Positions 5,519 through 23,034 of a stretch of 33,374 bases of DNA are shown piece after piece. The position numbers were made by a program, and so were the translations under genes. How positions within the stretch are numbered: position 1 is the stretch's first letter; every line of letters begins with the position of its first letter. The stretch lies in assembly GCA_030600745.1 (NCBI GenBank), contig JAUVLL010000001.1:1-33374 (forward strand). Direction: 5' to 3'. The notes beneath the pieces are model-generated. The model saw only the letters and a program-made list of their open reading frames with translations, was not told the origin of the DNA and did no database searches. Source of the DNA: Spirochaetaceae bacterium (lineage in GTDB: Bacteria; Spirochaetota; Spirochaetia; B11-G9).

Positions 5519-5521
5519 AAA

Positions 5522-5549: not shown

Positions 5550-5576
5550 AGAAACAATGTTTCACAGGAGGATTTT

Positions 5577-6989: not shown

Positions 6990-7000
6990 AACAAATTATT

Positions 7001-7046
7001 GTAGGCCGTTTGTAAGGGCGCAATTAATCGCGCCCCTACAACGGCC
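7001..7046. repeat. GC-rich REP-like imperfect palindrome (GTAGGCCG...CGCCCCTACAACGGCC)
   Basis: GGCCGTTTGTAAGGGCGC / GCGCCCCTACAACGGCC arms surround the loop AATTAATC, with one indel and one mismatch. The minus strand carries the core GTAGGGGCG. This GC-rich island sits in AT-rich intergenic DNA between the SBP and ARH2 genes and has no U-tract. Confidence 0.6.
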
Positions 7047-7079
7047 ATCAAACATTCGCATCCGCGGATAAGGGAAAAA

Positions 7080-9182
7080 ATGAACAAACAGAAATATCTG
7101 GAACAGGTATACTCAGGGCTTCTGGGGATGTGCGCAGGTGTAAGACTTGGCGCCCCTGTGGAACCTACAATATGGACATACGAAAGAATCAAGGCCACCT
7201 ATGGGGATATCCGGGGGTATGTTAAAAACTACAGCAACTTTGCGGCAGATGATGACGTAAACGGGCCTGTATTTTTTATTAGATCTCTTTTGGATTTTAA
7301 ACCTCCTTTAACAGCAGAAAAAGTGGGAAAAACATGGCTTAACTATACCAGAGAGGGGATAGGTTTTTACTGGTGGGGTGGTTATGGCAGGAGTACTGAA
7401 CATACAGCTTATATAAACCTTAAAAATGGTATTCCTGCACCGGATTCCGGCAGTATAAAAGTTAACGGAAAAGCTATTGCAGAGCAGATAGGGGGTCAGA
7501 TTTTTATTGATTCATGGGGATTGGTTTTTCCTGATAATTACAAAAAAGCTGCTGAATATGCAAAGATGGCAGCAAGTGTCGGGCATGACGGTAATGGTAT
7601 CTACGGCGCTGTTTTTGTTGCAGCTTTAATTTCATTGGCATTTACCAGTTCTGATCTTCCATTAATGATAGATAGGGCTTTGGAACTTATTCCATCTGAC
7701 AGTGAATATACACGGGTTGTTAAATCAGTCCGTGATTTTTATTTATCAAATTCAAATACTGGACCGGATGACTGGAGAGCATGCAGGGATTTTCTTACAA
7801 GTGACTTTGGCTATGATAAGTATCCCGGTGTTTGCCACATAATACCCAACTCCGGTGTAATTGCCCTGGCTCTTTACTATGGTAGGGGGGATTTTGCAAG
7901 AACTATTGAGATAGCAACAATGAGCGGATGGGATACGGATTGTAATGCCGGGAACGTGGGTACCATACTTGGTGTTATGGCTGGTCCGGAAGGAATTCCG
8001 GAGCGTTACAGTAGACCAATAAATGACTTCCATGCTGCCAGCAGTATCTCCGGAGCATTAAACATTCTGGATCTGCCTACAGTGTCAAAGGAACTTGCTG
8101 TACTTGGGCTTAAGCAGTTAGAAGATGACATTCCTGACGAATGGGAAAAAGGTACCTTTTCTGATGATATTTACTTTGACTTTACTATTCCCGAAACCAC
8201 CCATGGACTCCGAACTTCCAGTGAGTATCTGACACCTCTGAAAGAAGGGGCTTGCCCCGGGGACGGAGGAAGGGGAAAAGTAACCTTTATACTTGACCGA
8301 ATAAAAGAGAAGGATGAATCAAAAATTTTCTACAAACCCTATTATAAAAGGGAAGACTTCGATGATGAACGATATTCTCCCACATTTACTCCACTCGTTT
8401 ATCCTGGTCAGATAATGCACATTGAAGCAATGGTAGAACGGTTCAGTGGTCGGGATATATGTATTGCACCATACGTTAGAGACTCATCAACAAAAAAAAT
8501 ACTTTTAGGTAAAGAATTTTCTCCTGAATCAGGAAAAGAAGTTATTGTGGATTGGATAATCCCGGATGTACCATTTGCTGTGGATGAAGCAGGTTTACTA
8601 ATAAGAGGAATTGACAGTGAAAAATTTTTAGGAGAACTTTGTATTTATAACTATTCCATATCCGGTAAAAAGAAGTTTCATATAGATTTTGCTGACGAAG
8701 TAAAGGAATTCGGCGGCCTTAGTCGATGTTCACTTACAGGTGGCTCCTGGAGCATAGAAGAGGGACAGCTAAATGTGATTACCAACGAAACCTTCGGACT
8801 CTATACGGGGCCATATTACTGCAGTGATTATACTGTGGAAACTGTTTTAACCCCGGAGTACGGGACAAGTCATCTTGTAATTTTTAGATCAATAGGTGCT
8901 GAAAGAGGTTATTATTTTGGTCTCAATGGAAATAATAAAGTTGCGTTAATAAAGAGGGACCATGAAAATATTGTTGTTGCAGAAACTGATTTTCCATGGA
9001 GTATTGGGAAGGATTATACTCTTAAAGTGGAAGCAGCAGGCAGGATATTCCGCTGCTTTATAGATGGGAAAGAACTTATTAATTTTGAAGATAAAAATCC
9101 GTTTCCGGCAGGAATGGCCGGTCTTGGCAAACTGGAACCTGGCAGGACCCTTTATAGCAGCATTACATTTTCGGAGAATTAA
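7080..9182 (+). CDS. ARH-fold hydrolase fused to a beta-rich middle region and a C-terminal ConA-like/LamG (DUF1080-type) domain
   Basis: The N-terminal ~330 aa show the ARH signature: 'GLLGMCAGVRLGAPVE', 'AADDDVNG', 'MSGWDTDCNAGNVGTILG'. The C-terminal ~160 aa (from about nt 8700) follow the lectin-like jelly-roll pattern ('GGSWSIEEGQL', 'YTVETVL', 'GYYFGL', 'YTLKVEAAGRIFRCFIDGKELINFED', 'GMAGLG'). No signal peptide is evident. Confidence 0.85.
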   Translation: MNKQKYLEQVYSGLLGMCAGVRLGAPVEPTIWTYERIKATYGDIRGYVKNYSNFAADDDVNGPVFFIRSLLDFKPPLTAEKVGKTWLNYTREGIGFYWWGGYGRSTEHTAYINLKNGIPAPDSGSIKVNGKAIAEQIGGQIFIDSWGLVFPDNYKKAAEYAKMAASVGHDGNGIYGAVFVAALISLAFTSSDLPLMIDRALELIPSDSEYTRVVKSVRDFYLSNSNTGPDDWRACRDFLTSDFGYDKYPGVCHIIPNSGVIALALYYGRGDFARTIEIATMSGWDTDCNAGNVGTILGVMAGPEGIPERYSRPINDFHAASSISGALNILDLPTVSKELAVLGLKQLEDDIPDEWEKGTFSDDIYFDFTIPETTHGLRTSSEYLTPLKEGACPGDGGRGKVTFILDRIKEKDESKIFYKPYYKREDFDDERYSPTFTPLVYPGQIMHIEAMVERFSGRDICIAPYVRDSSTKKILLGKEFSPESGKEVIVDWIIPDVPFAVDEAGLLIRGIDSEKFLGELCIYNYSISGKKKFHIDFADEVKEFGGLSRCSLTGGSWSIEEGQLNVITNETFGLYTGPYYCSDYTVETVLTPEYGTSHLVIFRSIGAERGYYFGLNGNNKVALIKRDHENIVVAETDFPWSIGKDYTLKVEAAGRIFRCFIDGKELINFEDKNPFPAGMAGLGKLEPGRTLYSSITFSEN

Positions 9183-10715
9183 ATGTCAAAACTATTTGAA
9201 TATCAAGGGAAAAAACTTCTTGAGGCGGGCGGTTTTAAAATCCCCAGGAGTATGATAATAAAATCTATAAGTGATGCAGAAGAAGTATTTGAAGAAATCG
9301 GATCAGGTGTACTTAAAGCCCAGGTTTTTACAACAGGAAGAGCTGCATTAGGACTTGTTAAATTCCCGGAGACTTTAAAAGATTTACATACTTATATCGG
9401 TGAAATGCTTAGTCAGAGTATTAAAGGTTATAAAATAGAAACCCTTCTTTTTGAGGAAAAACTGGATATTAAACAGGAATATTTTGCAGGAATTATCCTA
9501 TCGACCGGGAAATCTTCTCCTACACTTGTTTTCAGCTCAAAGGGAGGTTCGGGGATAGAAGAGATTGTCTCCAAATATCCTGAATCGGTTTTTTTTCTGG
9601 ATATTAATCCGGATAAAATCCCTCTGCCCTTTGAACTGATTCCTCTTTTAAAAGATACAGGTATTTCCGGTAGGATATTAAATCTTTTATCTTCCAGTCT
9701 TATATCTCTAATTAAGACAGCTATTAAAAATGAGGCAAAAAGTCTGGAGATCAATCCTCTTGTTCTTACTAAAGAGGGAAAGATTATTGCTGCTGACTGT
9801 CATATGACAGTTGATGACTATGCTGTTTTCAGGCATCCCGAATTTGGTATTGAGATAGCACGGGAGCTTGGTCATCCTCCGACTGAACTTGAAAAAATTG
9901 CCTGGGCCGTTGAAAAGGATGATTACAGGGGTACTTTCTATTTTATACAGATGGAGCAGAATTTTAAGAAAGGGGATGGTGTTCTCGGATTTCATGGAGC
10001 AGGAGGGGGCGGCTCGATGATGAGTATGGATGCACTTCAGACTTATGGGTACAAAGTAGCTAATTTTTGCGATACATCAGGAAATCCTCCCGCTTCAAAG
10101 ATATACCGGGCTGCAAAAATTATTCTTTCTCAAAAAAATATTGACGGATACTTTGGATCAGGTTCCGGTGTTGCCAGTCAGGAGCAGTTTCATAGCGCCA
10201 GAGGTATTGTAAAGGCATTGAGAGAAGTAGATCCGGACTTTTCTGTTGTTTTTAGACTGGGTGGAAACAGTGAAGATAAAGCAATAAGGATTTTGGAGGA
10301 TTATACTAAAGACTTAAATTGCAGTGTAAAGTGTTTTGGAAAAGATACTTCTGTAACCGAATGTGCAGGTGAGATGGATCGGATGATGAAAGAGGGAAGA
10401 GAAGAGAGGGGAGAAGATATAACTAATCCTGAACCCCATAAATTTGATTATAGTTTTTATACTGTTACAGGTGGAACTGTAAGTTTCGATTATTCTTTAT
10501 GTAAAACTTGTTTATCGAAGGTGTGTATTAAAGAATGTCAGGGTGGGATACTTAAGGAAGTAAACGGAGTCCCTGTTCTGAATATTACAAAGACCGAAGC
10601 GACATCAGGCAAGTGTACTGAATGTCTTGCCTGTGAGGTAGAGTGTCTGGCTATAGGAAATGGTGGAGGAAAGATTTTTCTTCCCATTGAGGGTCTGGAA
10701 GGAGGTGTTTCATAA
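9183..10715 (+). CDS. SucC/CcsA/AclB-like ATP-grasp subunit of an ADP-forming acyl-CoA (citryl-CoA-type) synthetase, with a C-terminal 2x[4Fe-4S]-ferredoxin-like Cys domain
   Basis: The N-terminus 'MSKLFEYQGKKLLEAGGFKIP' parallels the SucC N-terminus, and 'LEINPLV' is present. The C-terminus carries CKTCLSKVCIKEC and CTECLACEVEC. The start is directly contiguous with the upstream stop (TAAATG). Confidence 0.8.
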   Translation: MSKLFEYQGKKLLEAGGFKIPRSMIIKSISDAEEVFEEIGSGVLKAQVFTTGRAALGLVKFPETLKDLHTYIGEMLSQSIKGYKIETLLFEEKLDIKQEYFAGIILSTGKSSPTLVFSSKGGSGIEEIVSKYPESVFFLDINPDKIPLPFELIPLLKDTGISGRILNLLSSSLISLIKTAIKNEAKSLEINPLVLTKEGKIIAADCHMTVDDYAVFRHPEFGIEIARELGHPPTELEKIAWAVEKDDYRGTFYFIQMEQNFKKGDGVLGFHGAGGGGSMMSMDALQTYGYKVANFCDTSGNPPASKIYRAAKIILSQKNIDGYFGSGSGVASQEQFHSARGIVKALREVDPDFSVVFRLGGNSEDKAIRILEDYTKDLNCSVKCFGKDTSVTECAGEMDRMMKEGREERGEDITNPEPHKFDYSFYTVTGGTVSFDYSLCKTCLSKVCIKECQGGILKEVNGVPVLNITKTEATSGKCTECLACEVECLAIGNGGGKIFLPIEGLEGGVS

Positions 10716-11638
10716 TGAGCATACTCCCTGGCAAATCCGGGAAAGTTATTATACAGGGAATAACAGGAAGAGAGGGCCGGGCCAGAACAAAACTAATGGT
10801 CGATATTGGGACTAATGTTGTTGCCGGTGTTACTCCTGGACAGGGTGGAAGCAGGGGGGTCTGGGGAGTACCTGTTTATGACACTGTTAACGAAGCTGTA
10901 GAAATCCATGGAAACATTGATATAACCGTTGTTTTTGTTCCTGCGCCTCTGGTAAAAAATGCAGTTATTGAATCATTTGCTTCGGGTGTAAAACTTGCTG
11001 TAATTGTTCCGGACAGAGTTCCTGTTTATGATGTAATGGCAATTGCAAGGGCAGCCGGGGAATATGGAGCAAGGTTTACAGGTCCCAATACTCTTGGAGT
11101 TTTATCACCGGGGATAGGTGTCCTCGGTATGATCGGAGGGAATGCTGATAGTGTCAGGAAATGGTTTAAGCCCGGGCCCGTTGGAATTACCTCGAGAAGC
11201 GGAGGTCTTACAACCTCAACGGCCTACTATCTTAGTCAGGCTGGTATTGGTCAAAGTACAATAGTTCATGTTGGCGGAGATTCTATAATCGGTCTTCCCC
11301 ATCCGGAAGTAGTTAAGCTTTTTCAGGACGACCCTGAAACAAAACTAATAGTACTGCTTGGCGAAATTGGCGGTTCTCAGGAGGAGGATGTTGCAGAACT
11401 TATGTCAACTGGCAAAGTTACAAAACCGGTGGTAGCCTATGTGGGCGGAAGGGGAGCAAAAGAGGGTACCCAATTTTCCCATGCAGGTGCTATAATAGAG
11501 GGCAGCCGGGGCACGTATCAGGGTAAAGTAGATAGTCTAAGAGATGCGGGAGCAATAGTTGTTGATGATATTAGTTCTATCCCGGCCGAGGTAAAGAAAA
11601 TTTTAGATAAACTGGGGATTCCTTATGTCAGAGATTAG
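10715..11638 (+). CDS. SucD/CcsB-like CoA-binding alpha subunit of the succinyl-/citryl-CoA synthetase family
   Basis: 'KVIIQGITGREG', 'GVTPGQGG', 'VPVYDTVNEAV', 'GPNTLGV', 'SRSGGLT' and the phosphohistidine loop 'FSHAGAII' are all present. The start overlaps the upstream stop (TAATG) after a GGAAGGAGG SD. Confidence 0.88.
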   Translation: MSILPGKSGKVIIQGITGREGRARTKLMVDIGTNVVAGVTPGQGGSRGVWGVPVYDTVNEAVEIHGNIDITVVFVPAPLVKNAVIESFASGVKLAVIVPDRVPVYDVMAIARAAGEYGARFTGPNTLGVLSPGIGVLGMIGGNADSVRKWFKPGPVGITSRSGGLTTSTAYYLSQAGIGQSTIVHVGGDSIIGLPHPEVVKLFQDDPETKLIVLLGEIGGSQEEDVAELMSTGKVTKPVVAYVGGRGAKEGTQFSHAGAIIEGSRGTYQGKVDSLRDAGAIVVDDISSIPAEVKKILDKLGIPYVRD

Positions 11639-12455
11639 CTTAGATAAAAGGTCGGAAAATAATGGTGCAGTAACATGGGAAACAAAAATAACAGAAATTA
11701 AGAAAGATGAAATACGAATACAGGGATATCGCCTGGATGAGCTTATGGGAAAGCGCAGTTTTGGAGATATGGTATTTTTAATGTTGAAGGGAGAACTTCC
11801 CAGAGACAATGAAGGCAGAATGATGGATATTATGCTGGTTTCCTGTATAGATCATGGAGTAACTCCTCCATCAACCCTGGCTGCTCTGACTTCTGCATCT
11901 ACAGGGGCTCCTTATAATGGTGCTCTTGCAGCAGGTATTTTATCTATCAATGAGCATCATGGCGGAGCAATAGAGAACTCCATGCGAATGCTTATGGAAT
12001 TAAAAGAAATTTTAGATAGTTCCCAGGATTCAGGAAGAGACTTTACTGCTGCAGTAGGTAAACTTTTGGATATATATAAAAATGAGAATCGTAAACTCCC
12101 GGGATTTGGTCATAGAATTCATAAAAATGACCCCAGGACAGGTAAATTACTGGATTTTGCAGATGAATTTGGTCTTTCAGACAGCTGGGTCCGTTTACTG
12201 ACAGGACTTAAGGATGGTATTCAGAAATCTATAGGTAAGGATCTGCCAATAAATGTGGATGGTGCTATTGCGGCACTGCTGCTTGAGTTGGAAATTGCAC
12301 CGGAGCTGGCTAATTCCTTTTTTATAATGGCCAGGGTTCCCGGTCTTGTGGCTCATATTCATGAAGAAAAAACTATTCAGAAACCTATGAGATGTATAGA
12401 TCCGGTTAATCATATCTATACTGGTATTTCTGCCAGGGATATTCCGGAAAAATAG
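11625..12455 (+). CDS. Short citrate-synthase-fold protein, citryl-CoA lyase-like (resembles the ATP-citrate lyase C-terminal domain)
   Basis: 'INEHHGGA', 'GFGHRIHKNDPR' and 'PINVDG' correspond to the His/His/Asp catalytic positions of the citrate synthase family. At 276 aa it matches the short Ccl-type form rather than a full-length citrate synthase. It overlaps the SucD-like gene by 14 nt. Confidence 0.8.
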   Translation: MSEISLDKRSENNGAVTWETKITEIKKDEIRIQGYRLDELMGKRSFGDMVFLMLKGELPRDNEGRMMDIMLVSCIDHGVTPPSTLAALTSASTGAPYNGALAAGILSINEHHGGAIENSMRMLMELKEILDSSQDSGRDFTAAVGKLLDIYKNENRKLPGFGHRIHKNDPRTGKLLDFADEFGLSDSWVRLLTGLKDGIQKSIGKDLPINVDGAIAALLLELEIAPELANSFFIMARVPGLVAHIHEEKTIQKPMRCIDPVNHIYTGISARDIPEK

Positions 12456-12643
12456 CGGCAGGAGAAACACTTTTAGTTTGATAACATCGCAAATAGCTTT
12501 AATAAGCTGGATATTTTTATTAATAAATTTATATCATATATTTGCTTTCTTCCGTCTGTTCTTTTATTATTGTAAGTATAGGAGGTTGGCAATCCAATTA
12601 TTGAAGTGATGATTAAGAGCTATAATAGGCAGGAGTGTGTGTT

Positions 12644-12982
12644 ATGACAGATATCAGTTTTATGAATCATGAGGAAAGAGTGTTTTTAGCAGGATGTCTG
12701 GAGACTGTTGTTGTTGCTGATAGTAACATTGAAGAAAATGAGCTTGAAAATCTTGATAAAACAGTAGAAGAACTAAATTTTAAGGATTTTGATGATTGCC
12801 TTTCTGAATTTGACAGTACCATTAAAGATAGTGAGAGTTTTTTCGAAAAAGCAGAAATTATTACAAGGCCTGAAGTAAGAGATGCTGTTCTCAAGATTAT
12901 TTACGAATTTCTCAGGTCTAACGGTATCCCTGAAAAATCGGAAGAAGGCCTTTTTGAAAGACTCAGTAAATTATGGGCGTAG
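12644..12982 (+). CDS. Small acidic hypothetical protein, possibly TerB-like
   Basis: ATG at 12644 after an AGGCAGGAG SD (the track start at 12635 is a GTG). 'VVADSNIEENELENL' resembles the TerB-family 'ADG.i...E...L' motif. The functional call is weak. Confidence 0.5.
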   Translation: MTDISFMNHEERVFLAGCLETVVVADSNIEENELENLDKTVEELNFKDFDDCLSEFDSTIKDSESFFEKAEIITRPEVRDAVLKIIYEFLRSNGIPEKSEEGLFERLSKLWA

Positions 12983-13005
12983 AAGCACAATTCATCGTGC
13001 CTTAT

Positions 13006-13803
13006 TTACCTCAGTTTAAAATATTTTCGAATAAGTTTTCGGGTTTTTGTACTTCCTGCTACAAAGTTCTCAGGTGCTTTTGTTCTATCCATCAGGAATT
13101 TGTAGTTAACTTTCTCTCCTCCGTAGTACTCCAGGTCCAGTCCCGCTTTTCGGATAACAGCATGGGCTGCTGCAACATCCCAAATATAGCATGGGGTTAT
13201 AACTGCACCCTTTACGTCGCTGTGAAGGAGAGGAGCCATAATATTAACGACGGCACTGCCTGCACCCCGTAGTTTTTGTTTATAAGTGCTGTATTCAAAA
13301 ATCTGATGGACACCGGAACCCAGCATTAGCTGACCTGGAGAATCAAAATCAAAATTAGAAATATCCAGTTCTTTTCCGTTAACTTTTAAAGGTCCTCCGG
13401 GCATTAATGTTAAAAGACTTCCGTTACTTTCTACTATACCCCATCGCGGAGCATTGATTATAGCTCCCACAGGTTCAAAATCGGAGTTCAGTATTCCAAC
13501 AGCCAGACACCATCCGGGCATTCCCTGGCTGAATGAATCAGTTCCGTCTATCGGGTCAATAGTAAAGATCCACTTCCTGTTTGCTTTTATGTTGTCAGGT
13601 AAGGGGTTTTCTTCAGTAATGATATTTGAATCAGGGAAGTGTTCATTAATTTTATCAGTTAAAAGTTTATCAAGTGCAGTATCCACCTTTGTAAGTATAG
13701 AACCATCAGACTTGATTCTCCTGGATACAGTATGTTGTTCTGCTGCGGCATATTTACCTGCTGCTATTATATCCCTAACAAGATTATTAAAAGCTATTTC
13801 CAT
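13006..13803 (-). CDS. Inositol monophosphatase / CysQ-family phosphatase
   Basis: 'IDPIDGTDSF' (the DPIDGT motif) and 'WDVAAAHAVIRKAG' are the classic IMPase-family motifs. 265 aa. Confidence 0.9.
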   Translation of the reverse strand: MEIAFNNLVRDIIAAGKYAAAEQHTVSRRIKSDGSILTKVDTALDKLLTDKINEHFPDSNIITEENPLPDNIKANRKWIFTIDPIDGTDSFSQGMPGWCLAVGILNSDFEPVGAIINAPRWGIVESNGSLLTLMPGGPLKVNGKELDISNFDFDSPGQLMLGSGVHQIFEYSTYKQKLRGAGSAVVNIMAPLLHSDVKGAVITPCYIWDVAAAHAVIRKAGLDLEYYGGEKVNYKFLMDRTKAPENFVAGSTKTRKLIRKYFKLR

Positions 13804-13804
13804 T

Positions 13805-13999
13805 CTATATTCCTTTTACCTCGGCAAAATTAATAAGTACTTCAGGTTTAATAAAACCAAGTTCCATAGCGATAATTCCAAAAAGGGAGTCATTACCATC
13901 CGTTTGAACTTTTAGAACTGACTCAACATTCTCTTTTGTCATTATCCCTGCTCTTACAAGCCATTCACCTATTTTTTCATCACTATTTAATTTTTCCAT
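13805..13999 (-). CDS. Stand-alone MshEN / T2SSE_N-like mini-protein (putative c-di-GMP-binding module)
   Basis: 64 aa. 'KIGEWLVRAGIMTKENVESVLKVQ' fits the 24-residue MshEN motif RLGxxLLxxGLIxxxxLxxxLxxQ at every fixed position except R to K. A degenerate second motif, 'LFGIIAMELGFIKPEVL', follows. Its stop lies 1 nt from the IMPase ATG. Confidence 0.6.
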   Translation of the reverse strand: MEKLNSDEKIGEWLVRAGIMTKENVESVLKVQTDGNDSLFGIIAMELGFIKPEVLINFAEVKGI

Positions 14000-14072
14000 C
14001 TCTTATCCAGTTTAATGATATTGAACTTTAGTATAGTATATTTTCAAATACTACTCAATCTGGGAATATACT

Positions 14073-15320
14073 TTGAAAATAAAAAATATTAATTCTATAA
14101 AACTATTTGTATTAATTGTTATAGGTATCTTAACAATCATTGGACAAGGGCAAGCCCTGCCCCTACAACCGTCTCAAACTGTTCCAACCCTTAATGCCCG
14201 ATCTGCTATTCTTATTGACAGTCTGACAGGTGCTGTACTTTTTGAGAAAAATAGTAATCTTTCGATTCCTCCTGCATCCATGACAAAGCTCATGAGCCTC
14301 TATTTGGTTTACAAAGAGATAGCAGAAGGAAGAGTGTCAAAAGATGAGATAATTACAATAAGCAGGGAAGCAGATTTCAGGTCTTTCCCCCCAGGATCCT
14401 CCTTAATGTTTTTGGAGGAAGGACAGGAAGTATCTATATCAGATCTAATGCTTGGCCTGGCTGTCCCTTCAGGAAACGATGCGGCCATTGCAGCAGCACA
14501 GCGAATTGCAGGATCAGTGGAGCAATTTGTAGAGATGATGAACAGGGAAGTATTGAAGATGGGGTTTAAATCTGTTCATTTTGAAGATGCATCCGGACTC
14601 AGCGATAAAAATATGGTAACTGCAGCAGACTTTGTACAGTTCTGCTCAATTTATATAAACAGCTTTCCGGAGGCTCTGAATGAACTTCATTCGGTAAACT
14701 CTTTTACCTATCCAAAAAAGGGAAACTGGAAAACAAATGGAAATTCCGTTTATGGTCCAATAACCCAGTATAACAGAAATAATCTTCTGACAGCTTATGC
14801 TCCTATCGATGGATTAAAAACAGGATATATCGATGAATCAGGTTACAATGTAGCACTGACTGCCCAAAAAGATGATCGAAGACTGATTGCTGTTCTTCTT
14901 GGAGGTCCCGGAGAAACCAGTGCAGAAGGATCAATGCTCCGGGCGATAGACGGAGTAAATCTTCTGTCTTATGGGTTTTATAGTTTTACCAATATAAAAA
15001 GTGATATACCTGAATTTGCTCTTCCCAGGGTATGGAAGGGGACAAAAACTTATATTGAATTAAAGTTTCCGGAAATTCCAGTCCTTACACTTCCTGTGGA
15101 AAAAGCAGCAGTACTCAAAATCAGAGTGGAGCTTCCGGGAAATATTATTGCACCTATAAAAAAAGGGGATATTCTGGGAGAAATTATCCAGTTTGCAGAC
15201 GATGAAATTATTGATCAATATTCAATTACAGTAGCAGAAGATATTGAAACCAGCGGTTTTTTCAAACGATTCTTTGACAGTATAAGATTGTTTTTCCTGA
15301 AGATCACCGGTGATTTTTGA
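14073..15320 (+). CDS. Serine-type D-Ala-D-Ala carboxypeptidase (PBP5/6-like, peptidase S11)
   Basis: The SxxK 'SMTK', SxN 'SGND' and KTG 'KTGY' motifs occur in the correct order and spacing. A signal peptide is present. TTG start. Confidence 0.9.
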   Translation: MKIKNINSIKLFVLIVIGILTIIGQGQALPLQPSQTVPTLNARSAILIDSLTGAVLFEKNSNLSIPPASMTKLMSLYLVYKEIAEGRVSKDEIITISREADFRSFPPGSSLMFLEEGQEVSISDLMLGLAVPSGNDAAIAAAQRIAGSVEQFVEMMNREVLKMGFKSVHFEDASGLSDKNMVTAADFVQFCSIYINSFPEALNELHSVNSFTYPKKGNWKTNGNSVYGPITQYNRNNLLTAYAPIDGLKTGYIDESGYNVALTAQKDDRRLIAVLLGGPGETSAEGSMLRAIDGVNLLSYGFYSFTNIKSDIPEFALPRVWKGTKTYIELKFPEIPVLTLPVEKAAVLKIRVELPGNIIAPIKKGDILGEIIQFADDEIIDQYSITVAEDIETSGFFKRFFDSIRLFFLKITGDF

Positions 15321-15321
15321 C

Positions 15322-15780
15322 CTACATAATTTGTTCAACCATAAAAGCATTAAAACCTTTTAAATCAAAAATTTCAAAATAGTATGCACTTCCATCTTTA
15401 AGAAGAATTTGGGTAACATTTCTAAATAATATTTTACGTATGCCGGATATTTCAAATAATTGTTTGGGATCACTGTTATATTTTATAACCCTCATCGCCT
15501 GGGACAGGTTTATATTATTTATTCGTTCAATTTCCGAAACAGTAATCTGGAATTTAAGTTTTACATATTCAGTTTTTTTCCGAAAAATCAGTGAAAGAGA
15601 GCTGCTTTCTCTTTCAAAATCTTCAAATATCAGTCTGTTTCCAACAAAAAAGAAAAGGCCGCCAAGGTTTTTAGTCTTACCACCGGATTCCCCGATAAAT
15701 TGAGCATAAGTCCTGAACTCAAGCTTACCACCATTTTCCAGTTCCATTTTTGCAAGGAGTTTATTGTTTTCTTCATCCAT
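15322..15780 (-). CDS. Hypothetical protein (152 aa, possibly a PH/GRAM-like fold)
   Basis: A clean ORF that fills the gap between neighbouring genes. I recognise no diagnostic motif. Confidence 0.6.
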   Translation of the reverse strand: MDEENNKLLAKMELENGGKLEFRTYAQFIGESGGKTKNLGGLFFFVGNRLIFEDFERESSSLSLIFRKKTEYVKLKFQITVSEIERINNINLSQAMRVIKYNSDPKQLFEISGIRKILFRNVTQILLKDGSAYYFEIFDLKGFNAFMVEQIM

Positions 15781-15789
15781 TGTTATACC

Positions 15790-16206
15790 TTATAAATAAT
15801 CAACTTGATGGGTTATATCAGCAGCCTTCTTTAAAACTTCACTGACACCGCAGTATCTGTCCTGGGAAAGCATAATTGCTTTATCAACTTTCTTTCTGTT
15901 AAGATCGTCAGAGTTTTTAAATTCATAAATTATATGAAAACCTGAATAGTGTTTTGGATGCTCTTCAGTTTGTTCCGCTTCGACTCTAACATTAAACCAT
16001 GAAACTTCCTGACCCATTTTATTCAGAATAGAGATTACATCCATACCTGTGCATCCTCCAAGAGACAGTAACATAAATGGTTTTGGTCTTGGTCCCAGAT
16101 CTTTACCACCAACTTCCGGTGTTGCATCAATAACAATTTTATGTCCGTCCATAACGGTTTCGAAGGCCATATCACCTTTCCAGCGGCATCCAACTTCTAC
16201 TTTCAT
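15790..16206 (-). CDS. OsmC/Ohr-family (YhfA-like) peroxiredoxin-fold protein
   Basis: 'GGKDLGPRPKPFMLLSLGGCTGMDV' and the C-terminal 'RYCGVS' are typical of the OsmC family. The ATG at 16206 has a strong SD (TAGGAGGAG). The track's upstream extension to 16329 runs through REP-like repeats and is rejected. Confidence 0.85.
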   Translation of the reverse strand: MKVEVGCRWKGDMAFETVMDGHKIVIDATPEVGGKDLGPRPKPFMLLSLGGCTGMDVISILNKMGQEVSWFNVRVEAEQTEEHPKHYSGFHIIYEFKNSDDLNRKKVDKAIMLSQDRYCGVSEVLKKAADITHQVDYL

Positions 16207-16308
16207 ACCAACTCCTCCTATTTCGCTATAATATACCTGTATCTCCGTAAAGACGCAATGCTTTACGTCTCTCATCTCTCCTCCCCCTTTCCCCTCTCCT
16301 GGGCGTTC

Positions 16309-16340
16309 CCCTGCGTAGGGCGAATACAAGCTACGCAGGG
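16309..16340. repeat. REP-like hairpin 1 (10-bp stem CCCTGCGTAG/CTACGCAGGG, 12-nt loop)
   Basis: A perfect inverted repeat, read directly. It is GC-rich and contains GTAGGGCG. Confidence 0.65.
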
Positions 16341-16360
16341 TCAGGCTTTCCAGGGGTTCC

Positions 16361-16399
16361 GTCCACGTAGGGGCGGGGTTCCCCCACCCCTACGTGGAC
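16361..16399. repeat. REP-like hairpin 2 (13-bp stem GTCCACGTAGGGG/CCCCTACGTGGAC)
   Basis: A perfect 13-bp inverted repeat. The loop CGGGGTTCCCCCA is itself self-complementary. It carries the core GTAGGGGCG at 16367-16375. Confidence 0.7.
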
Positions 16400-16465
16400 C
16401 ACCTGCGGTGCCCCTCCAATCCTTAACGTGTGGAACAGTAATGCGATCCGTGATACGATACATTC

Positions 16466-17410
16466 ATGAACTACATTCTGAAAGATTTCGGAAAACTTTT
16501 AAAACAGAATAATCTTAAAATGCGGCGGTACTTTGCACCGTTAGATACAAATTGTTACAGAGTTTACGATAAAAATATTCCGTTACTGCAAATTACTGTG
16601 GATATATATGGTTCCTATATTTATATACTGGATTATCGGGAAGATTCTTATAATGGGGAACCTTCGGCAGAAGAAATTATAGATACAGTTTTTAGGATGC
16701 TCTATGTTTTAAAAGAGAAGATATTCTATAAAAACCGAAAAACCCGCCAGGGAATATCTCAACATAAAAATCTGGATGATTCCGGAAACCTGGTAGAGGT
16801 AATGGAAAACGGACTGCAGTTTTTTGTTAATCTTCATGACTATATTGATACTGGATTATTCCTGGATCATCGGAAAACACGTAAAATGGTCAGAGACAGC
16901 GCCATGAGTAAAAGAGTCTTAAATCTCTTTGCGTATACCGGTTCTTTTTCAGTCTATGCAGCAGCAGGCGGAGCCGAAACTATCGATACAGTAGATTTAT
17001 CAGCTAACTATAATCGTTGGGGGATGAGAAACCTTTCTATAAATGGATTTTCAAGCCGGAACTACAAGTTTCATTCCTCTGATACAGCAGATTATCTGGT
17101 TAATGCCCGAAAAGAGGGGAAAGAATACGATATTATTATTGTTGACCCTCCTACCTTTTCGAACAGTAGAAAAATGGAAGGAACATTTGATATTCAGAGA
17201 GATTATTTTTCCTTATTAAAAGCATGTCTGGGTCTTCTGTATAAAGATGGATATATAATATTTTCTACAAATTATACTAAATTTCATTTTGACCCAGGCC
17301 GATTCCAAAACATCCATTCAAAAGAAATCACAAACACAACAGTAGACGAAGATTTTTCCCGAAAACGAAAACCCCACAGATGCTGGATAATAGAAAATAA
17401 ACGATTTTAG
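16466..17410 (+). CDS. Class I SAM-dependent rRNA methyltransferase, RlmK-domain-like (23S rRNA m7G2069-type)
   Basis: 'CYRVYDKNIP...ITVDIYG' parallels the start of the E. coli RlmL/K C-terminal domain. The SAM motif 'LNLFAYTGSFSVYAAAGGA' and the catalytic 'DPPTFSNS' are present. Confidence 0.85.
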   Translation: MNYILKDFGKLLKQNNLKMRRYFAPLDTNCYRVYDKNIPLLQITVDIYGSYIYILDYREDSYNGEPSAEEIIDTVFRMLYVLKEKIFYKNRKTRQGISQHKNLDDSGNLVEVMENGLQFFVNLHDYIDTGLFLDHRKTRKMVRDSAMSKRVLNLFAYTGSFSVYAAAGGAETIDTVDLSANYNRWGMRNLSINGFSSRNYKFHSSDTADYLVNARKEGKEYDIIIVDPPTFSNSRKMEGTFDIQRDYFSLLKACLGLLYKDGYIIFSTNYTKFHFDPGRFQNIHSKEITNTTVDEDFSRKRKPHRCWIIENKRF

Positions 17411-17486
17411 CCAAAAAATATGTTTGCATTATAAACAATATACGGGCAGGGTTCTCCTGTCCAAAAACCAAATATGCCTGCTTTAA

Positions 17487-19187
17487 TCACATTTTTTTTG
17501 CAGCTGCCTTTTGAAGCTTTGCCCATGTATCCCTCATGGAAACAGTTCTGTTAAAAACAGGTGCACCGGGGTTTGAGTATACACTGTCTGCGCAGAAGTA
17601 TCCTTTTCTTAGAAACTGAAAAGATTCACCGGGTACTGCTTTTAAAAGAGAGGGTTCCAGTTTACACCCTTTTAAAACTTCCAGAGAATCCTGTGCAATA
17701 TCATCCAGAAAGTTACCGGTGGCCTCTTCCGGATTTTCACTTGTAAACAGGTGAGAATATAATCTTACGTCGGCCTCAAAAGCATGAGCTGCGGATACCC
17801 AGTGGCTGGTTCCTCTTACCTTTCTGCCGTCTTCAGTCCAGCCGCCTCTGGATTCCGGATCGTATGTACAGTGGACCTCAATAATTTCTTCTGTGTCAGG
17901 ATCTTTTATTACATCAGTGCAGGTTACGTAGTAGGCGTGCTTCAGCCTTATCTCTTTACCTGGAGAAAGGCGGAAATATTTTTTAGGGGGATTTTCCATA
18001 AAATCATCTTTTTCAATATATATTTTTCTGGAAAAAGGAATCTCTCTTTTTCCCATACTTTCATCTTCCGGATTATTATCTGCCTCCAGCATCTCTGTTT
18101 TACCCTCCGGATAGTTTGTAATGATCACTTTCAAAGGATCAAGGACAGCCATTACTCTCTTTGCTTTTACATTGAGATCTTCTCTAAGGCAGTGTTCAAG
18201 GAGTGCGAAATCCACTGTACTGTTCGATTTTGCAACCCCTATTCTGGATGCAAAATCCCTGAGTGATTCGGGTGTGTAACCTCTTCTTCTTATACCGGAA
18301 ATTGTAGGCATTCTGGGATCATCCCATCCTGATACATATCCCTTTTCAACCAGGGTGAGTAATTTTCTTTTACTCATAATTGTATAGTTAAGATTCAGTC
18401 TGGCAAATTCAATCTGCCGGGGCTTTGAAGGTACTCCTGATTCATCTACAGACCAGTTGTAGAGAGGTCTGTGATCTTCAAATTCAAGAGTACATACAGA
18501 ATGAGTAATCTCTTCAAAAGCATCTGATAATGGATGTGTAAAGTCATACATAGGATAGATACACCAATTATCCCCTGTCCTGTGATGACTCATCCTCTTT
18601 ATTCTGTATAATGCAGGGTCTCTCATGTTTAAATTAGGGGAGGACATATCTATTTTTGCTCTTAAAAGATACTTACCGTCTTCAAATTCACCGTTCTTCA
18701 TCTTTTCAAAGAGATCAAGATTTTCCTCTACCGATCTGTCTCTATCAGGACTGTTCTTCCCTGGAGAAGTAAGAGTTCCCCGGTATTCCCTTATTTCTTC
18801 AGGGCCAAGACTATCCACATAAGCTTTACCCTCTTTAATCAGCTTTACAGCAATTTCATATAATTTATCAAAGTAATCGGATGCATAGTATTCATGCTTT
18901 TTCCAGTCAAAACCAAGCCATTTTATGTCTTCTTTAATAGATCTTATATATTCCATTTCCTCTTTTGCAGGATTGGTATCATCGAAGCGAAGATGACATG
19001 TTCCATTATACTTTTCAGCCAGGCCAAAGTTAAGACAAATAGATTTTGCATGTCCAATATGTAGATACCCATTAGGTTCAGGCGGGAATCGTGTTACTAT
19101 CCGACCATTGTTTATGTTATTCTTTATATCTTCATCTATTATCTTCTCAATAAAATTTCCAGCGCTTGCTATGTTGTTCTCTTCCAT
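17487..19187 (-). CDS. glnS: Glutamine--tRNA ligase
   Basis: '[23 protein letters not shown]' (HIGH motif) and 'IMSKRK' (KMSKS-type) are present. At 566 aa the protein has GlnRS architecture throughout. Confidence 0.95.
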
Positions 19188-19267
19188 AAATTTTCCCTGT
19201 ATTAAAAATGTTTAGTCGTTATACTAGTATATTTTTATTATTCAATCCAGTCTTCCATAGTTCGGGG

Positions 19268-20383
19268 TTAAGGTTCAACTCGCTTAACAGAGATTGATGA
19301 TCCATTTTCGAATTTAACAATAACAGCAGGTTTTATCGGATTCCGGTTTTTGTCATATTTAATTTTGCCTGTAACTCCGATAAACGCTGTTGTACTTGCC
19401 AGAGCATCCCTTATCCGATCCCTGTCAGTAGAATGCGCTCTTTCGATGGCATCGGCAAGTAAATAAACCATATCATATGCAAGTGCCATTCCTGCATTGA
19501 TTTCTTCATCACTATAAAGTGTTTTAATTTTATTAAGAAAAGCAATACTTCTTTTATCACTTTGAGAAGCATGCCAATGTGTCAGATAGTAGGTATTGTT
19601 CAGTGATTCAGGTGCATAATTATACATAAGGTGGCTCCAGCCGTCTCCTCCCAAAAATACTGAATCAAGGCCCAGTGCACGTGCCCTTTTGATAATTAGA
19701 GCAGAGTCCCGGGTATATCCGGGTAGAAATACTGCATCAAAATTGTATTGCATTAACTTATTAATCAAATCTCCATAGTTGGTCATATTTTCGACATAAT
19801 CCAGCTCTGCAACAATCTTCCCATTTAGTGAGTTAAAGGAATAGTAAAATTGTTTTGCAAGTTCAATACTAAATATCTGGTCTGTATTTGTTAAAATAGC
19901 AACATGTCTTGCTTTTAAATAATTATATGCAAAATTTGCAAGAACTTCTCCCTGGAATGTATCAATAAAACATGTGCGGAAAATAAAATCACCTACTTCA
20001 GTTACTTTAGGGTTTGTTGCAGTAGGAGTCAGCATAGGTATTCCTGCTTCCTGTAATACCAGTGCCATTCCCAATGCATGAGAACTCCATGAACTTCCAA
20101 GAACAGCAACAACTTTTTCATTAACTGCCCTTATTGCTGCTTGTCTTGATCCGAGAGCTGTACTTTTATTATCCAGTTCTATTAGTTCTATCCTTTTCCC
20201 TAAAATACCGCCATTATTATTAATTTCATCAACAGCGAACCTGACTGTAATTAAATGTTCATCAGAAATTGAAGAAGCTTCACCGGTTTGCGAAAAAATT
20301 GCAGCAATTCTAATTGATTCTGAAGCTGTGGATAAATCAACAATTACAAATACAAAGATAGCTAAATAAAACAATTTCTTCAT
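19268..20383 (-). CDS. Periplasmic substrate-binding protein, LivJ/Peripla_BP_6-like (branched-chain amino acid type)
   Basis: 'IRIAAIFSQTGEAS...AVDEINNNGGILGKRIELIELDN...VVAVLGSSWSS' matches the LivJ-family pattern. The start is placed at 'MKKLFYLAIFVFV' (ATG 20383), which gives a signal peptide. The track's extension to 20503 overlaps the upstream gene. Confidence 0.85.
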   Translation of the reverse strand: MKKLFYLAIFVFVIVDLSTASESIRIAAIFSQTGEASSISDEHLITVRFAVDEINNNGGILGKRIELIELDNKSTALGSRQAAIRAVNEKVVAVLGSSWSSHALGMALVLQEAGIPMLTPTATNPKVTEVGDFIFRTCFIDTFQGEVLANFAYNYLKARHVAILTNTDQIFSIELAKQFYYSFNSLNGKIVAELDYVENMTNYGDLINKLMQYNFDAVFLPGYTRDSALIIKRARALGLDSVFLGGDGWSHLMYNYAPESLNNTYYLTHWHASQSDKRSIAFLNKIKTLYSDEEINAGMALAYDMVYLLADAIERAHSTDRDRIRDALASTTAFIGVTGKIKYDKNRNPIKPAVIVKFENGSSISVKRVEP

Positions 20384-20399
20384 ACTAATATAATCCTGA

Positions 20400-20624
20400 T
20401 CAGCTTTTGCTGATAATTTCATATGCCCGGTCTTTCTGGTGAGGAAACAAATCACTCGGCATACTTTCTCTCCCCAAAGCCATAAAAACCATGTATTGTG
20501 CACAGTTAAGGTTATTTTTTTTGCAATATTTTTCTTTCATTATAGCTATCTGCTCTTCATCACCTTTCAGTTGGTCGTTATAGAAGGGACAAATGTCAAT
20601 TAATTCACATTCCTGCATATACAC
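20400..20624 (-). CDS. Small 4-Cys hypothetical protein (74 aa)
   Basis: The Cys pattern is C6-x5-C12 ... C34-x6-C41 ('ECELIDICPFYND', 'YCKKNNLNC'). It ends 16 nt upstream of the binding-protein ATG on the same strand. Confidence 0.55.
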   Translation of the reverse strand: MYMQECELIDICPFYNDQLKGDEEQIAIMKEKYCKKNNLNCAQYMVFMALGRESMPSDLFPHQKDRAYEIISKS

Positions 20625-20748
20625 CTCAATGATTTAAAAATAAATTAAGTTGCCGGATAAATCAATAAAAATTAGATTTTTTTTTATATATTCTCTCTAT
20701 TTGCTAATCATAACAATATATACTACCATATGGTAAGAGGTGTTATTA

Positions 20749-22260
20749 ATGAAACTGCGTAGAAAACTTAACTTAATTAGTTTTGTCGCATTTATTCTTC
20801 TGGTTATTCTCACTGTTTTATTTCAACTCCCTGTTCAGCAGAAACAGGAGGAACTCTTTATTAATAGTGTTATACACCTTCTTGATGTACTGGTAAATTC
20901 CGAAGAAATCCAACTGGCCAACGAAATTTTCGATAATCGTACCAGAGCTATCAGTTTAAGACTTGAAAGAATGTTACATATGCAGGGAGTTGAGAATGTA
21001 ATTCTTTACAATAAACTGGGAGCAATGATCAATTTTGCTTTAAGTAGTGATAAGGAGGGGGCAGAGATAAAAACAGGCAGTGATTATACTAATGCCGATA
21101 TTTTTACAAAAGAGCTTATCTATCATGATGAAGCCTCTCTTCATTATGAGCATGTTATTAAATTTGGTGATGATATTCTTGGATTTATTGAAATATTCTA
21201 TTCACTTGAAGAGATTAAGAATCAAAGTAGAAAATCCATTTTTGTCTTTGTCGGTTCAGTCTCGGTCGGTCTTATTGTTGTATTACTATTTCTTAATTTA
21301 ATTCTATCAAGGACAGTTGTTTATCCCCTGATTCGACTTATTGATGCTATTAAAATCTATAACATGGAGAGCTCAGAGGATCATAAGAACAAGATCGAGG
21401 TAAGAAGTAAAGACGAGATAGGTGAGTTGACGATGAGTTATAATCATTTATCGGAAAAAATACATAATTACAGCAAAGAGCTTCAGAAAAAGAACTTACA
21501 ACTGGTACGATCACAGAAAATGGAGATGATTGGTACTCTTGCAGGTGGTCTGGCTCATGATTTTAATAATATTCTTGGTGGAATAATTGGTTCAGTATCA
21601 TTACTCAAGCTTTATCAGGCTGATGGTGATTTGTCAGATGAAAAATTATTGAATAATCTGACAATAATTGAAAAATCATCAAAAAGAGCTACCGGGGTGG
21701 TCAGTAAACTAATGAATTTTTCAAGGGAAGAAGTTAATACAAAATTAGTAGTTGATCTGAATGCTATTGTGAATGATGTTATTGAGATCTGCAGGACAAC
21801 AATTGATAAAAGTCTTCATCTTCATCCCGGTCTAATGGCAGGTGATTTGCTTGTCGAAGCTGATCCGGGAGAGATCGAACAGGTTATTCTTAATCTATGT
21901 ATAAATGCTGCTCATTCCATGACAATAATGCGGAGTACTGATGATATAAGAGAGGGGACTCTTGGTATTAAAACTGAGAAAAAACAGGTGGGAGACAATA
22001 ATTACTGTTCTGTAATTATATCAGATACGGGTGTTGGTATAAAACAGGAAAATCTTGTACGTATATTTGATCCATTTTTTTCTACTAAAATTGAGGATGG
22101 TGGAACAGGCTTTGGTCTGGCTATGGCATCATCAATTATTAATCGGCATAAAGGATTTATTGATGTAGACTCCACTTATGGAGATGGAACTACCTTTATT
22201 GTGAATCTACCTGCATATACCGGAAGTAAGGGGGGGGTGTTAATCAGAATTACTGTTTAA
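20749..22260 (+). CDS. Membrane sensor histidine kinase (2 TM, periplasmic loop, HAMP, HisKA, HATPase_c)
   Basis: H-box 'LAGGLAHDFNNILGGI', N-box 'LNLCINAAHSM', G1 'SDTGVGI', G2 'GGTGFGLA', and the HAMP element 'VYPLIRLIDAIK...DEIGELTMSYNHL'. The ATG at 20749 lies 8 nt after AAGAGG. The track start at 20740 is a GTG. Confidence 0.9.
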   Translation: MKLRRKLNLISFVAFILLVILTVLFQLPVQQKQEELFINSVIHLLDVLVNSEEIQLANEIFDNRTRAISLRLERMLHMQGVENVILYNKLGAMINFALSSDKEGAEIKTGSDYTNADIFTKELIYHDEASLHYEHVIKFGDDILGFIEIFYSLEEIKNQSRKSIFVFVGSVSVGLIVVLLFLNLILSRTVVYPLIRLIDAIKIYNMESSEDHKNKIEVRSKDEIGELTMSYNHLSEKIHNYSKELQKKNLQLVRSQKMEMIGTLAGGLAHDFNNILGGIIGSVSLLKLYQADGDLSDEKLLNNLTIIEKSSKRATGVVSKLMNFSREEVNTKLVVDLNAIVNDVIEICRTTIDKSLHLHPGLMAGDLLVEADPGEIEQVILNLCINAAHSMTIMRSTDDIREGTLGIKTEKKQVGDNNYCSVIISDTGVGIKQENLVRIFDPFFSTKIEDGGTGFGLAMASSIINRHKGFIDVDSTYGDGTTFIVNLPAYTGSKGGVLIRITV

Positions 22261-23034
22261 AATATCATCGATTAACCCGATCTTAAATCTGTCAGCTATC
22301 TCTTTGCATTCTTTAATTGAAGCATGTACATCTTCCGGCCTGTGGGCGTCTGAGTTGCAGATTGCTTTTATATTATAATTACCTGCCAGCTCCCAGAAAT
22401 TTAACCAGGGATAAACGGGGCGCTCCCCTTCCGGTGTTGATAGTTCTTTTTTCCGTAGACCGTATCCATTTATTTCCAATGGAATATTAAGCTCTTCCGC
22501 AGCAGTGAGAATGTCAGTGGAACAGGCAATAGCATTATTATCCCATTTCATATATCCGGCCCCAAATCCATCCGGGTGGGCAATAAAACTGAATAGTCCC
22601 GTTCGCATTGTTGCAATCATTATCTTTGCATATTGGGTCAGATGTTTTGGTGTCCTGATATCACTTAGATACCCCCAGTCACCCGGTACCTTTATATAAT
22701 GAATAGCACCAATCAGATAGTCGAATCCTCTTTCTCCCAGCAGCTCATCTCTGTAGAATGCTTCATAAATGGGATCCCATTCACATTCAAGCCCTTTTAA
22801 GAGAATAATGTCATCCGATTCAGCCTCCCTGAATTCTGCTTCATAGGCGTCCAGTTCCGATATGTCCATTCTTACATGAGGCCATCTGTTGTCTGGTAGG
22901 GGGGTGTGGTCCGATATCCCCAGTAGGGGCGACCGGCTGGTCGCCCCTACCTGGGATATCGCAGCATCTACATAATCTTTTACAGTCCCTGTTGCATGTT
23001 TGCAACGCCATGTGTGGGTGTGAAAATTGTTCAT
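22240..23034 (-). CDS. PHP-family phosphoesterase, histidinol-phosphatase (HisJ/HisK)-like
   Basis: 'FHTHTWRCKHA', 'ISDHTPLP', 'GAIHYI' and 'AHPD' are PHP metal-ligand motifs. The start is ATG 23034 or GTG 23040. The 3' end overlaps the kinase gene by 21 nt in convergent orientation. Confidence 0.85.
   Translation of the reverse strand: MNNFHTHTWRCKHATGTVKDYVDAAISQVGATSRSPLLGISDHTPLPDNRWPHVRMDISELDAYEAEFREAESDDIILLKGLECEWDPIYEAFYRDELLGERGFDYLIGAIHYIKVPGDWGYLSDIRTPKHLTQYAKIMIATMRTGLFSFIAHPDGFGAGYMKWDNNAIACSTDILTAAEELNIPLEINGYGLRKKELSTPEGERPVYPWLNFWELAGNYNIKAICNSDAHRPEDVHASIKECKEIADRFKIGLIDDILNSNSD
22913..22960. repeat. 48-bp REP-like imperfect palindrome located in frame inside the PHP-phosphatase CDS
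   Basis: GATATCCCCAGTAGGGGCGACC ggct GGTCGCCCCTACCTGGGATATC has 22-nt arms with 2 mismatches. It carries the core GTAGGGGCG on both strands and encodes 'ISQVGATSRSPLLGIS'. Confidence 0.75.

Follow-up and report, generated by a model that had tools for sequence, protein, structure and literature searches.

Among the repetitive extragenic palindromic elements (REPs) associated with REP-associated tyrosine transposases (RAYTs, or TnpA_REP), the closest described counterparts of the sequences considered here are those of subclass 2.4, which corresponds to group 4 in the RAYT classification of Bertels. In the available portion of Quentin et al. (2018; BMC Genomics 19:475), these are described as double-foot REPs with a 5' GT[AG]G and a 3' C[TC]AC and, as a trait unique to this subclass, REPs are found in frame within the tnpA_REP gene itself, between HuH and Y. 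For group 4, the abundance of flanking 16-mers is merely modest (Bertels et al., 2017), as might be expected if copies lie within the gene. Regarding hosts, the accessible text of Di Nocera et al. (2013; BMC Genomics 14:522) places GTAG REPs in Proteobacteria, Cyanobacteria, Chloroflexi and the PVC group, with CGTC-type REPs only for Spirochaetes; it also describes GTAG REPs within genes, REPs enclosed by small palindromes and RAYT-like genes with terminal inverted repeats (TIRs) on their flanks. The present analysis concerns the G+C-rich GTAG palindromes of a 33,374-nt stretch from a Spirochaetaceae bacterium (contig JAUVLL010000001.1, positions 1 to 33,374; hereafter the window), which has a G+C content of 38% and also encodes a Y1 protein at 339-854. 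These hairpins are probably non-autonomous double-foot GT[AG]G...C[TC]AC REPs of RAYT/TnpA_REP subclass 2.4, mobilised from elsewhere in the genome and not by the Y1 protein of the window. The observations that bear on this are the anatomy of the units, their excess over chance, their identity across phyla, their association with one class of RayT genes, the gain of a copy by a coding sequence and the replacement of copies at one slot.

In the initial annotation, the palindromes were described as a dispersed, REP-like family built around the 9-mer GTAGGGGCG. This 9-mer or its complement is found exactly where annotated, at 7031-7039 (-), 16367-16375 (+), 22923-22931 (+) and 22942-22950 (-), i.e., four occurrences against 0.06 expected (0.05-0.1 had been estimated), and none of the 100 dinucleotide-preserving shuffles of the window from which expected counts were obtained reaches four; with one mismatch allowed, nine are observed for 2.04 expected. 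Folding of single-stranded DNA (ssDNA) bears out that every exact copy contributes one arm to a strong hairpin, with -17.1 kcal/mol (z -5.6) for 7000-7050, -19.6 kcal/mol (z -5.3) for 16355-16405 and -25.7 kcal/mol (z -6.9) for 22905-22968. The dispersed palindromes are therefore real, with the corrections that they are discrete 27-28-nt units, perfect or near-perfect palindromes of the form GTAGGGGCG-N10-CGCCCCTAC, and that the pair of 9-mers at 22923 and 22942 lies within a coding sequence and not between genes. The full copies, the smaller or possibly decayed units and the gene hosting copy 3 are as follows:

7012-7039, REP copy 1, GTAAGGGCGCAATTAATCGCGCCCCTAC, 28 nt with two arm mismatches, intergenic
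7004-7010 and 7040-7046, outer stem of copy 1, 7 bp, GGCCGTT / AACGGCC
16367-16393, REP copy 2, GTAGGGGCGGGGTTCCCCCACCCCTAC, 27 nt with one mismatch, intergenic
16361-16366 and 16394-16399, outer stem of copy 2, 6 bp, GTCCAC / GTGGAC
16309-16340, short hairpin of 10 bp, CCCTGC-GTAGGGCGAATACAAGCTAC-GCAGGG, -11.1 kcal/mol, z -4.2
22923-22950, REP copy 3, GTAGGGGCGACCGGCTGGTCGCCCCTAC, 28 nt with perfect arms, stem reaching 22912-22961, in frame inside a PHP/HisJ-family gene
22240-23034 (-), host gene of copy 3, PHP-domain histidinol-phosphatase-family protein, PHP domain from residue 6 of the listed open reading frame (ORF)
around 14146-14183 (-), possible decayed intragenic REP, with near-copy GTAGGGGCA at 14158-14166 on the - strand

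Each of the three full copies has CTAC at its end, and GTAG opens copies 2 and 3, while the start of copy 1, GTAA, is one substitution off. The GTAG foot is followed by GGG(G)C, and the stems of these copies (11-13 bp) enclose loops of 3-8 nt. GTAG is present in all the strongest G+C-rich hairpins of the window, the LacI-type operator excepted. Other identities were considered for the palindromes and rejected, namely attC sites (on anatomy and for want of R/L boxes), CRISPR repeats (no arrays) and chance (shuffle statistics).

The family extends far beyond the window. A GTDB scan with one genome per species and the pattern GTAGGGGCG-N0-30-CGCCCCTAC retrieved at least 120 loci, and the listed matches fall in Chloroflexota, Cyanobacteria, Bacteroidota/Rhodothermota, Desulfobacterota, Binatia, Omnitrophota, Planctomycetota, Clostridia, Patescibacteria, Spirochaetia and others. 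The length is 28 nt in 82 and 29 nt in 22 of the 124 listed copies, and 77 of them have a perfectly palindromic inner part, although its sequence varies (CACGGCCGTG, GTTCGCGAAC, TATTGCAATA and others). Since chance would produce random spacing and non-palindromic centres, this fixed spacing and these palindromic centres argue against a chance origin. Each window copy has near-identical counterparts elsewhere, in a Desulfobacterales locus (L099) for copy 3, in L126 for copy 1 and, as 27-mers, in Calothrix (L104) and Villigracilis (L017) for copy 2. Complementarity does not extend into the flanks in 89 of the 124 listed copies, which is near the random expectation. Two candidate rules were abandoned: that insertion always takes place into the centre of an existing palindrome, as flank complementarity across phyla is about random (the local feature in the window remains unexplained), and that the ends are fixed as CAGTAG...CTACTG, as in the PHP and DUF493 copies, since the flanks of the 124 cross-phylum copies are variable. 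In the texts of the papers searched, GTAGGGGCG, GCCCCTAC and the peptides that the palindromes encode (LQYAPT, VGATGRSPL and others) matched nothing relevant, the family being described in figures.

With regard to the cognate transposase, the Roseiflexus RAYT rca_2775 (Di Nocera et al., 2013, supplement), whose annotated N-terminus contains GRPQGVAPT twice, was used as a tblastn query against 120 palindrome loci. It matches two of them (L024 and L114), and in both the palindrome lies in frame within the RayT ORF, between HUH and WQRNY. The palindrome inside the L024 gene is DRRGVLQYAPTT, which recurs in identical form 25 nt upstream of the ORF and again 1.8 kb away, and that inside the L114 gene is VGRGGSRTAPTI. 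For the RayT type of L024, 2731 homologues are found at E<=1e-5, including several under the name 'REP element-mobilizing transposase RayT', and palindrome-encoded peptides occupy the HUH-to-Y linker in 90 of the best 120 of the 2731, some in tandem. These linker peptides use either open frame, giving RGVLQYAPT or VGAxxxxPL, from which it follows that the DNA and not the peptide is conserved. One such RayT (P0179/L195) carries exactly GTAGGGGCGACCGGCCGGTCGCCCCTAC, i.e., the sequence inserted in the PHP gene of two spirochaete-related loci (L001 and L002), and another (P0232/L194) encodes VGATSRSPL, the same peptide as the window PHP protein. The residues by which E. coli TnpA_REP reads GTAG, given as W94, Q95, E100, H101 and R104 in the portion available of Quentin et al. 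(2018), are conserved in the subclass-2.4-type RayTs as W, Q, E/D, H/R and R. In some RayTs (P0138, P0153, P0137 and P0193), the linker contains long tandem arrays (e.g., GRGVLPTD ten times, KGVWDEEGEVDR ten times) followed by a full RGVLQYAPT, which suggests repeated partial duplication of a REP within the gene.

The window units thus resemble the subclass-2.4 REPs, as far as these are described in the accessible text (Quentin et al., 2018), in their feet, in a long stem based on three G-C pairs, in their scatter over many phyla and in the occurrence of in-frame copies both in tnpA_REP and in unrelated genes. They differ in that the window copies lie in additional flanking stems and in that the cognate gene is not seen in the window; moreover, Cyanobacteria and Bacteroidetes are listed there as phyla in which the subclass is abundant, and that text does not mention a spirochaete host. 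The in-gene and double-foot findings reproduce published ones, and what is new is the spirochaete host lineage. Judging from these sequence associations, the cognate RAYT likely lies outside the window and its partner role would fall to a subclass-2.4 paralogue. The initial annotation had named a paralogue of the Y1 protein as a fallback, and it is this reading that survives.

Copy 3 was gained by insertion into a coding sequence. With the start of the PHP gene set at the ATG giving MNNFHTHT, which matches the homologues, the copy is translated as VGATSRSPL; close homologues lack this peptide, most homologues (255 aa) showing AAIKNNMKILGMSDH at this place, and VGAT(G/S)RSPL is found in the window and in three others (P0001, P0002 and P0003). 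At the DNA level, the empty site of L004 reads GCA ATA CAT and the filled sites of L001, L002, L003 and the window read GCA-[28 nt]-TG-CAT. The insert of L001 and L002 is GTAGGGGCGACCGGCCGGTCGCCCCTAC, from which window copy 3 differs by one base. The window and L001 also lack 18 nt downstream of the insert, which brings GGGATATC to face GATATCCC and makes the stem longer. Among the four filled genes, variable columns amount to 2/28 in the REP and to 246/755 in the remainder (binomial P=0.0017). In an AlphaFold model of the protein (mean predicted local distance difference test score 93, predicted template modelling score 0.91), the REP-encoded residues form a surface loop between helix 20-31 and strand 39-42, and the host gene is apparently intact.

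Presence, absence and replacement of copies can also be followed in other relatives. The best homologues of the window genes are proteins of metagenome-assembled genomes of Spirochaetales, Spirochaetia and Spirochaetaceae, and one contig (L005) is syntenic, with TP_0855-like and UPF0164 genes. In 122 kb of spirochaete-related loci, 18 double-foot units are counted, four of them ascertained via the motif itself, against 0.3 in shuffles, and perfect 28-mers are held by several relatives. The slot between the genes for an ABC-transporter solute-binding protein (SBP) and an ADP-ribosylglycohydrolase contains the copy 1 body in the window (6990-7079), GTATGGATGGGCATGAAACCCATCCCTAC in L196/L197 (5219-5300 of L196), where the SBP protein is 95% identical, two GTAGAGACG-type units in L199 (11417-11569) and a weak hairpin only in L198 (11411-11497), and its right junction, CTAC(AAC)GGCC, is common to the window, L196 and L199. 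Unrelated REP bodies at one slot despite 95% identical SBP proteins point to recent activity or replacement, and this turnover is the least explained aspect of the system. REPs also differ between the window and L005 in the region upstream of the OsmC gene. In L005 itself, in-frame REPs are found at 11133-11160, 14121-14163 and 14280-14308, one in a DUF493 gene (SRGRRSATPT) and two (VGAQNVGAKDFLPLR and EGTARRAPTV) in that of a thioredoxin-like membrane protein; the window has neither gene at the matching place. The REP-like character proposed in the initial annotation is therefore well founded, considering the double-foot anatomy, the over-representation, the presence/absence and replacement in relatives and the copies in or next to RayT genes elsewhere.

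Regarding the setting of the individual window units, copy 1 lies 23 nt past the stop codon of the SBP gene (5577-6989) and 41 nt ahead of the ADP-ribosylglycohydrolase gene (7080-9182). A GTAG at 7001 starts its outer stem, as though a REP had entered the loop of an older REP. Copy 2 is located between divergent genes, OsmC-like (-) and RlmK/L-like methyltransferase (16466-17410, +), and makes up a REP pair with the hairpin at 16309-16340. The latter encloses a 20-nt GTAG...CTAC unit (16315-16334), which is probably a truncated or decayed REP. The near-copy annotated here is real and has a significant hairpin, its coordinates having been one base off (GTAGGGCG at 16315-22), while the other annotated near-copy, at 14158-14166, shows no significant hairpin upon ssDNA folding (z -1.0). 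This second site lies in the gene of a PBP5-type D-Ala-D-Ala carboxypeptidase (14073-15320), within a 10-aa insertion (ALPLQPSQTV) that follows the signal peptide and is defined by comparison with the L005 orthologue; GCCCCTAC is contained in the insertion, and the region around 14146-14183 may, tentatively, be a decayed in-frame REP. A further sequence, AGCAGAGAGGCTTTTGCGATGTCTCTGA at 23081-23108, 47 nt upstream of the start of the PHP gene, has an intact counterpart in L001, GTAGAAACGCAAGAACTTGCGTCTCTAC, and is possibly a decayed GTAGAGAC-type REP.

Comparison with other known systems helps to delimit the family. The GTAG-23 elements of Chloroflexi, as presented in the available sections of Di Nocera et al. 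(2013), share with the window units the GTAG tag, a G+C-rich stem-loop of 20-40 bp, an intergenic bias and in-frame intragenic copies, whose peptides end in ...CPY or ...RPY (GCCCCTAC); moreover, GTAG-23 units of T. roseum are inserted within small palindromes and resemble the nested window copies. In contrast, GTAG there mostly forms an unpaired tag confined to one end, and any identity of the window units with GTAG-23 is putative. With Rickettsia palindromic elements (RPE), copy 3 has in common an in-frame palindromic insert in a protein gene and a tolerated surface peptide. RPE-1 measures about 100-150 bp, is lineage-specific and has no known transposase. RPE differ from copy 3 in length, sequence and tag, and copy 3 is accordingly not classed among them; in the available text, RPE-4 and RPE-6 are classed as CGTC REPs and not as GTAG REPs (Di Nocera et al., 2013).

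As for E. coli REPs, which are arranged in bacterial interspersed mosaic elements (BIMEs), the likeness to the window units lies in the proposed cutting and rejoining of GTAG plus hairpin as ssDNA by a Y1 HUH protein and in the location of REPs downstream of operon genes. E. coli REPs, however, are imperfect palindromes with bulges and a single foot that flank the RAYT gene, whereas the window units are perfect double-foot palindromes, mostly singletons, and flank no RAYT. E. coli TnpA_REP reportedly binds and cleaves hairpin ssDNA and is, to our knowledge, the only RAYT for which such binding and cleavage are known. By analogy with this enzyme, the following mechanism can be proposed. Each copy is a 27-29-nt palindrome with a conserved foot, GTAG plus three or four G-C pairs (GTAGGGGCG), and a 10-nt centre which is free in sequence yet self-complementary. 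As ssDNA, both strands would fold alike, into one hairpin form that carries GTAG at its 5' side. A subclass-2.4 Y1 HUH RayT encoded elsewhere would read foot and hairpin, cut at the foot and rejoin the ends, whereby copies might be excised, inserted or exchanged. Copies arriving in protein loops or just 3' of genes would be tolerated and would persist, and there they may serve as mRNA or DNA hairpins.

The initial annotation had instead proposed the Y1 protein encoded at 339-854 as the possible mobiliser, with the palindromes as its cognate REPs. This proposal draws on the shared window and on the protein itself, a 171-aa product with HUH (HIH) and Y...NP motifs that matches Pfam Y1_Tnp with 56 bits and exceeds the cut-off of the NCBIfam REP-associated tyrosine transposase model (REP_Tyr_transpos; 88.1 versus 80 bits). 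However, GTAG palindromes are missing both from 1-1640 around the gene and from the 330 kb of 64 metagenomic loci with homologues, where the heptamer GTAGGGG is also 6-fold rarer than in the window, and conversely tblastn of the protein against 950 kb around the 124 palindromes gave no match. The gene has a partner motif of its own, the short and non-palindromic GGGACGGAG(G/C), which brackets it and its homologues (62 exact 9-mers in 318 kb for 2.4 expected; L130-L150, L152, L166 and L190-L191), with a + copy 60-145 nt upstream of the start of the homologues, an inverted one 240-490 nt past the stop codon in at least ten of the closer homologues and further copies dispersed nearby. In the window, GGGACGGAG occurs at 191, 1109 and 1238 (188-199, 1106-1117 and 1235-1246) and also at 8260-8269; no ORF of at least 90 aa was found between 854 and 1626. 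The protein is closest to TIR-flanked 'TIRYT' proteins, with gbm_2474 (32% identity, E 2e-27) and pca_3049 as the best matches, while it is weakly matched by the E. coli RAYT (E 4e-7) and not at all by rca_2775. With TIRYT/TnpA_Y1 subclass 2.1, it shares the GHVWxDRFKS and YIxxNPVKAGMV motifs, and it differs from TIRYT in its 171-aa length without a long C-terminal extension and in having as its bracket the 9-10-nt GGGACGGAG[G/C] and no long TIR. Among the GTAG-reading positions, only W is kept, Q, E, H and R being replaced by Y, S, V and K. On these sequence grounds, the gene is probably a TIRYT/subclass-2.1-like paralogue and not the mobiliser of the palindromes, and a role as their mobiliser is very unlikely. 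The initial annotation had also considered that the Y1 gene might possess ends of its own, unrelated to the repeats; this is essentially the case for the gene, with GGGACGGAG(G/C), and does not detract from the repeats as a REP family. Since the available portion of Quentin et al. (2018) describes subclass 2.1 genes as having no identifiable flanking REP-like structures, the bracketing motif GGGACGGAG(G/C) may be undescribed.

The assignment to mobile subclass-2.4 REPs also has points against it. Its mechanism rests on analogy with E. coli TnpA_REP. No subclass-2.4 RayT was found in the window or in about 90 kb of related spirochaete loci, L196-L199 (about 49 kb) being outside this search. Every window copy sits within a further 6-9 bp of flanking complementarity, which is unusual for the family (at least 3 bp in only 10 of the 124 copies listed elsewhere) and is left unexplained by simple cut-and-paste. 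Finally, copy 3 has passed vertically through about 18-20% nucleotide divergence, and copies 1 and 2 contain two and one mismatches, respectively, from which it follows that some copies are old and have not moved recently. The RayT missing from the loci covered, the mismatches and the vertical passage lend themselves to the view that the window copies are fossil REPs whose RAYT has been lost, and which are kept by vertical inheritance, hairpin self-correction or host use; the decayed relics at 16315-16334 and around 14146-14183, as well as the sharing of copy 3 by four diverged lineages, fit such a view. Against it, the unrelated bodies at the SBP slot imply recent turnover, perfect 28-mers occur in several relatives, and the RayT search covered about 90 of about 120 kb of lineage DNA, so that a missing single-copy gene says little. 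Wholly fossil REPs are, taken together, rather improbable.

It could further be argued that the palindromes have nothing to do with transposition and are host regulatory hairpins which arose in place and serve as terminators or attenuators, as mRNA stabilisers or as sites for protein binding. Copy 1 lies directly after the SBP gene inside an operon, a classic position for mRNA-stabilising REPs, as in E. coli malEFG, and the intragenic copy is conserved above its gene. On the other hand, a terminator scan calls not one of the three copies, and a T-run is missing after each of them (tails AACGGCCATC, GTGGACCACC and CTGGGATATC), promoter and terminator scans show neither enrichment nor calls at the palindrome sites, an Rfam scan of the whole window gave no match at gathering score, and one copy is inside a coding sequence. 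Above all, 28-mers with identical feet and fixed length across phyla and inside RayT genes contradict an origin in place, which makes this alternative extremely unlikely. A secondary, exapted role, e.g., in stabilising the SBP mRNA, is possible and compatible with REPs of subclass 2.4. As regards the way in which such REPs turn over, it is conceivable, if unlikely, that the feet (GTAG/CTAC) are fixed junctions at which a RAYT swaps or refreshes the hairpin body in place, in a cassette-like manner. Such an exchange would account for the CTAC(AAC)GGCC junction kept with unrelated bodies, for the near-perfect intragenic copy in spite of about 20% divergence of its gene and for the free but self-complementary inner 10 nt; if it were true, the in-frame copy of the RayT gene could be a master copy moving with the gene between phyla.

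A few other features of the window can be mentioned. A perfect 46-nt palindrome at 1548-1593 (CAATACCTTATGGTAACGATACC/GGTATCGTTACCATAAGGTATTG) lies just upstream of a LacI-family gene (1626-2630), and a related sequence, GGTAACGATACCGGTAACGTTACC, is found at 2664-2687 ahead of the next gene; both are probably operators of the LacI-family regulator, unrelated to the REPs. The region 2688-12455 is an unusual operon-like run, conserved in L198 and L199, which encodes in order an ADP-ribosylglycohydrolase, two ABC permeases, the SBP and a 700-aa ADP-ribosylglycohydrolase fusion, its last genes being citryl-CoA synthetase-like (ATP-grasp/CoA-ligase) and citrate-synthase/citryl-CoA-lyase-like.

While the known picture of REPs and RAYTs is unchanged by these data, double-foot GTAG REPs are extended to a spirochaete lineage, a phylum for which the accessible text of the 2013 survey reports the CGTC type only (Di Nocera et al., 2013). 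A nearby Y1 gene, or one annotated as a 'REP-associated' transposase, need not be the mobiliser of the palindromes around it, and caution is called for in this respect. The locus and its relatives provide natural examples of the gain of a REP in the surface loop of an enzyme, of the replacement of a REP body at one slot and of two classes of Y1 paralogues with different DNA partners. For the spirochaetes concerned, subclass-2.4 REPs would account for both the G+C-rich hairpins and the odd peptide inserts (VGAT.RSPL, RG...APT) encountered in their genes.

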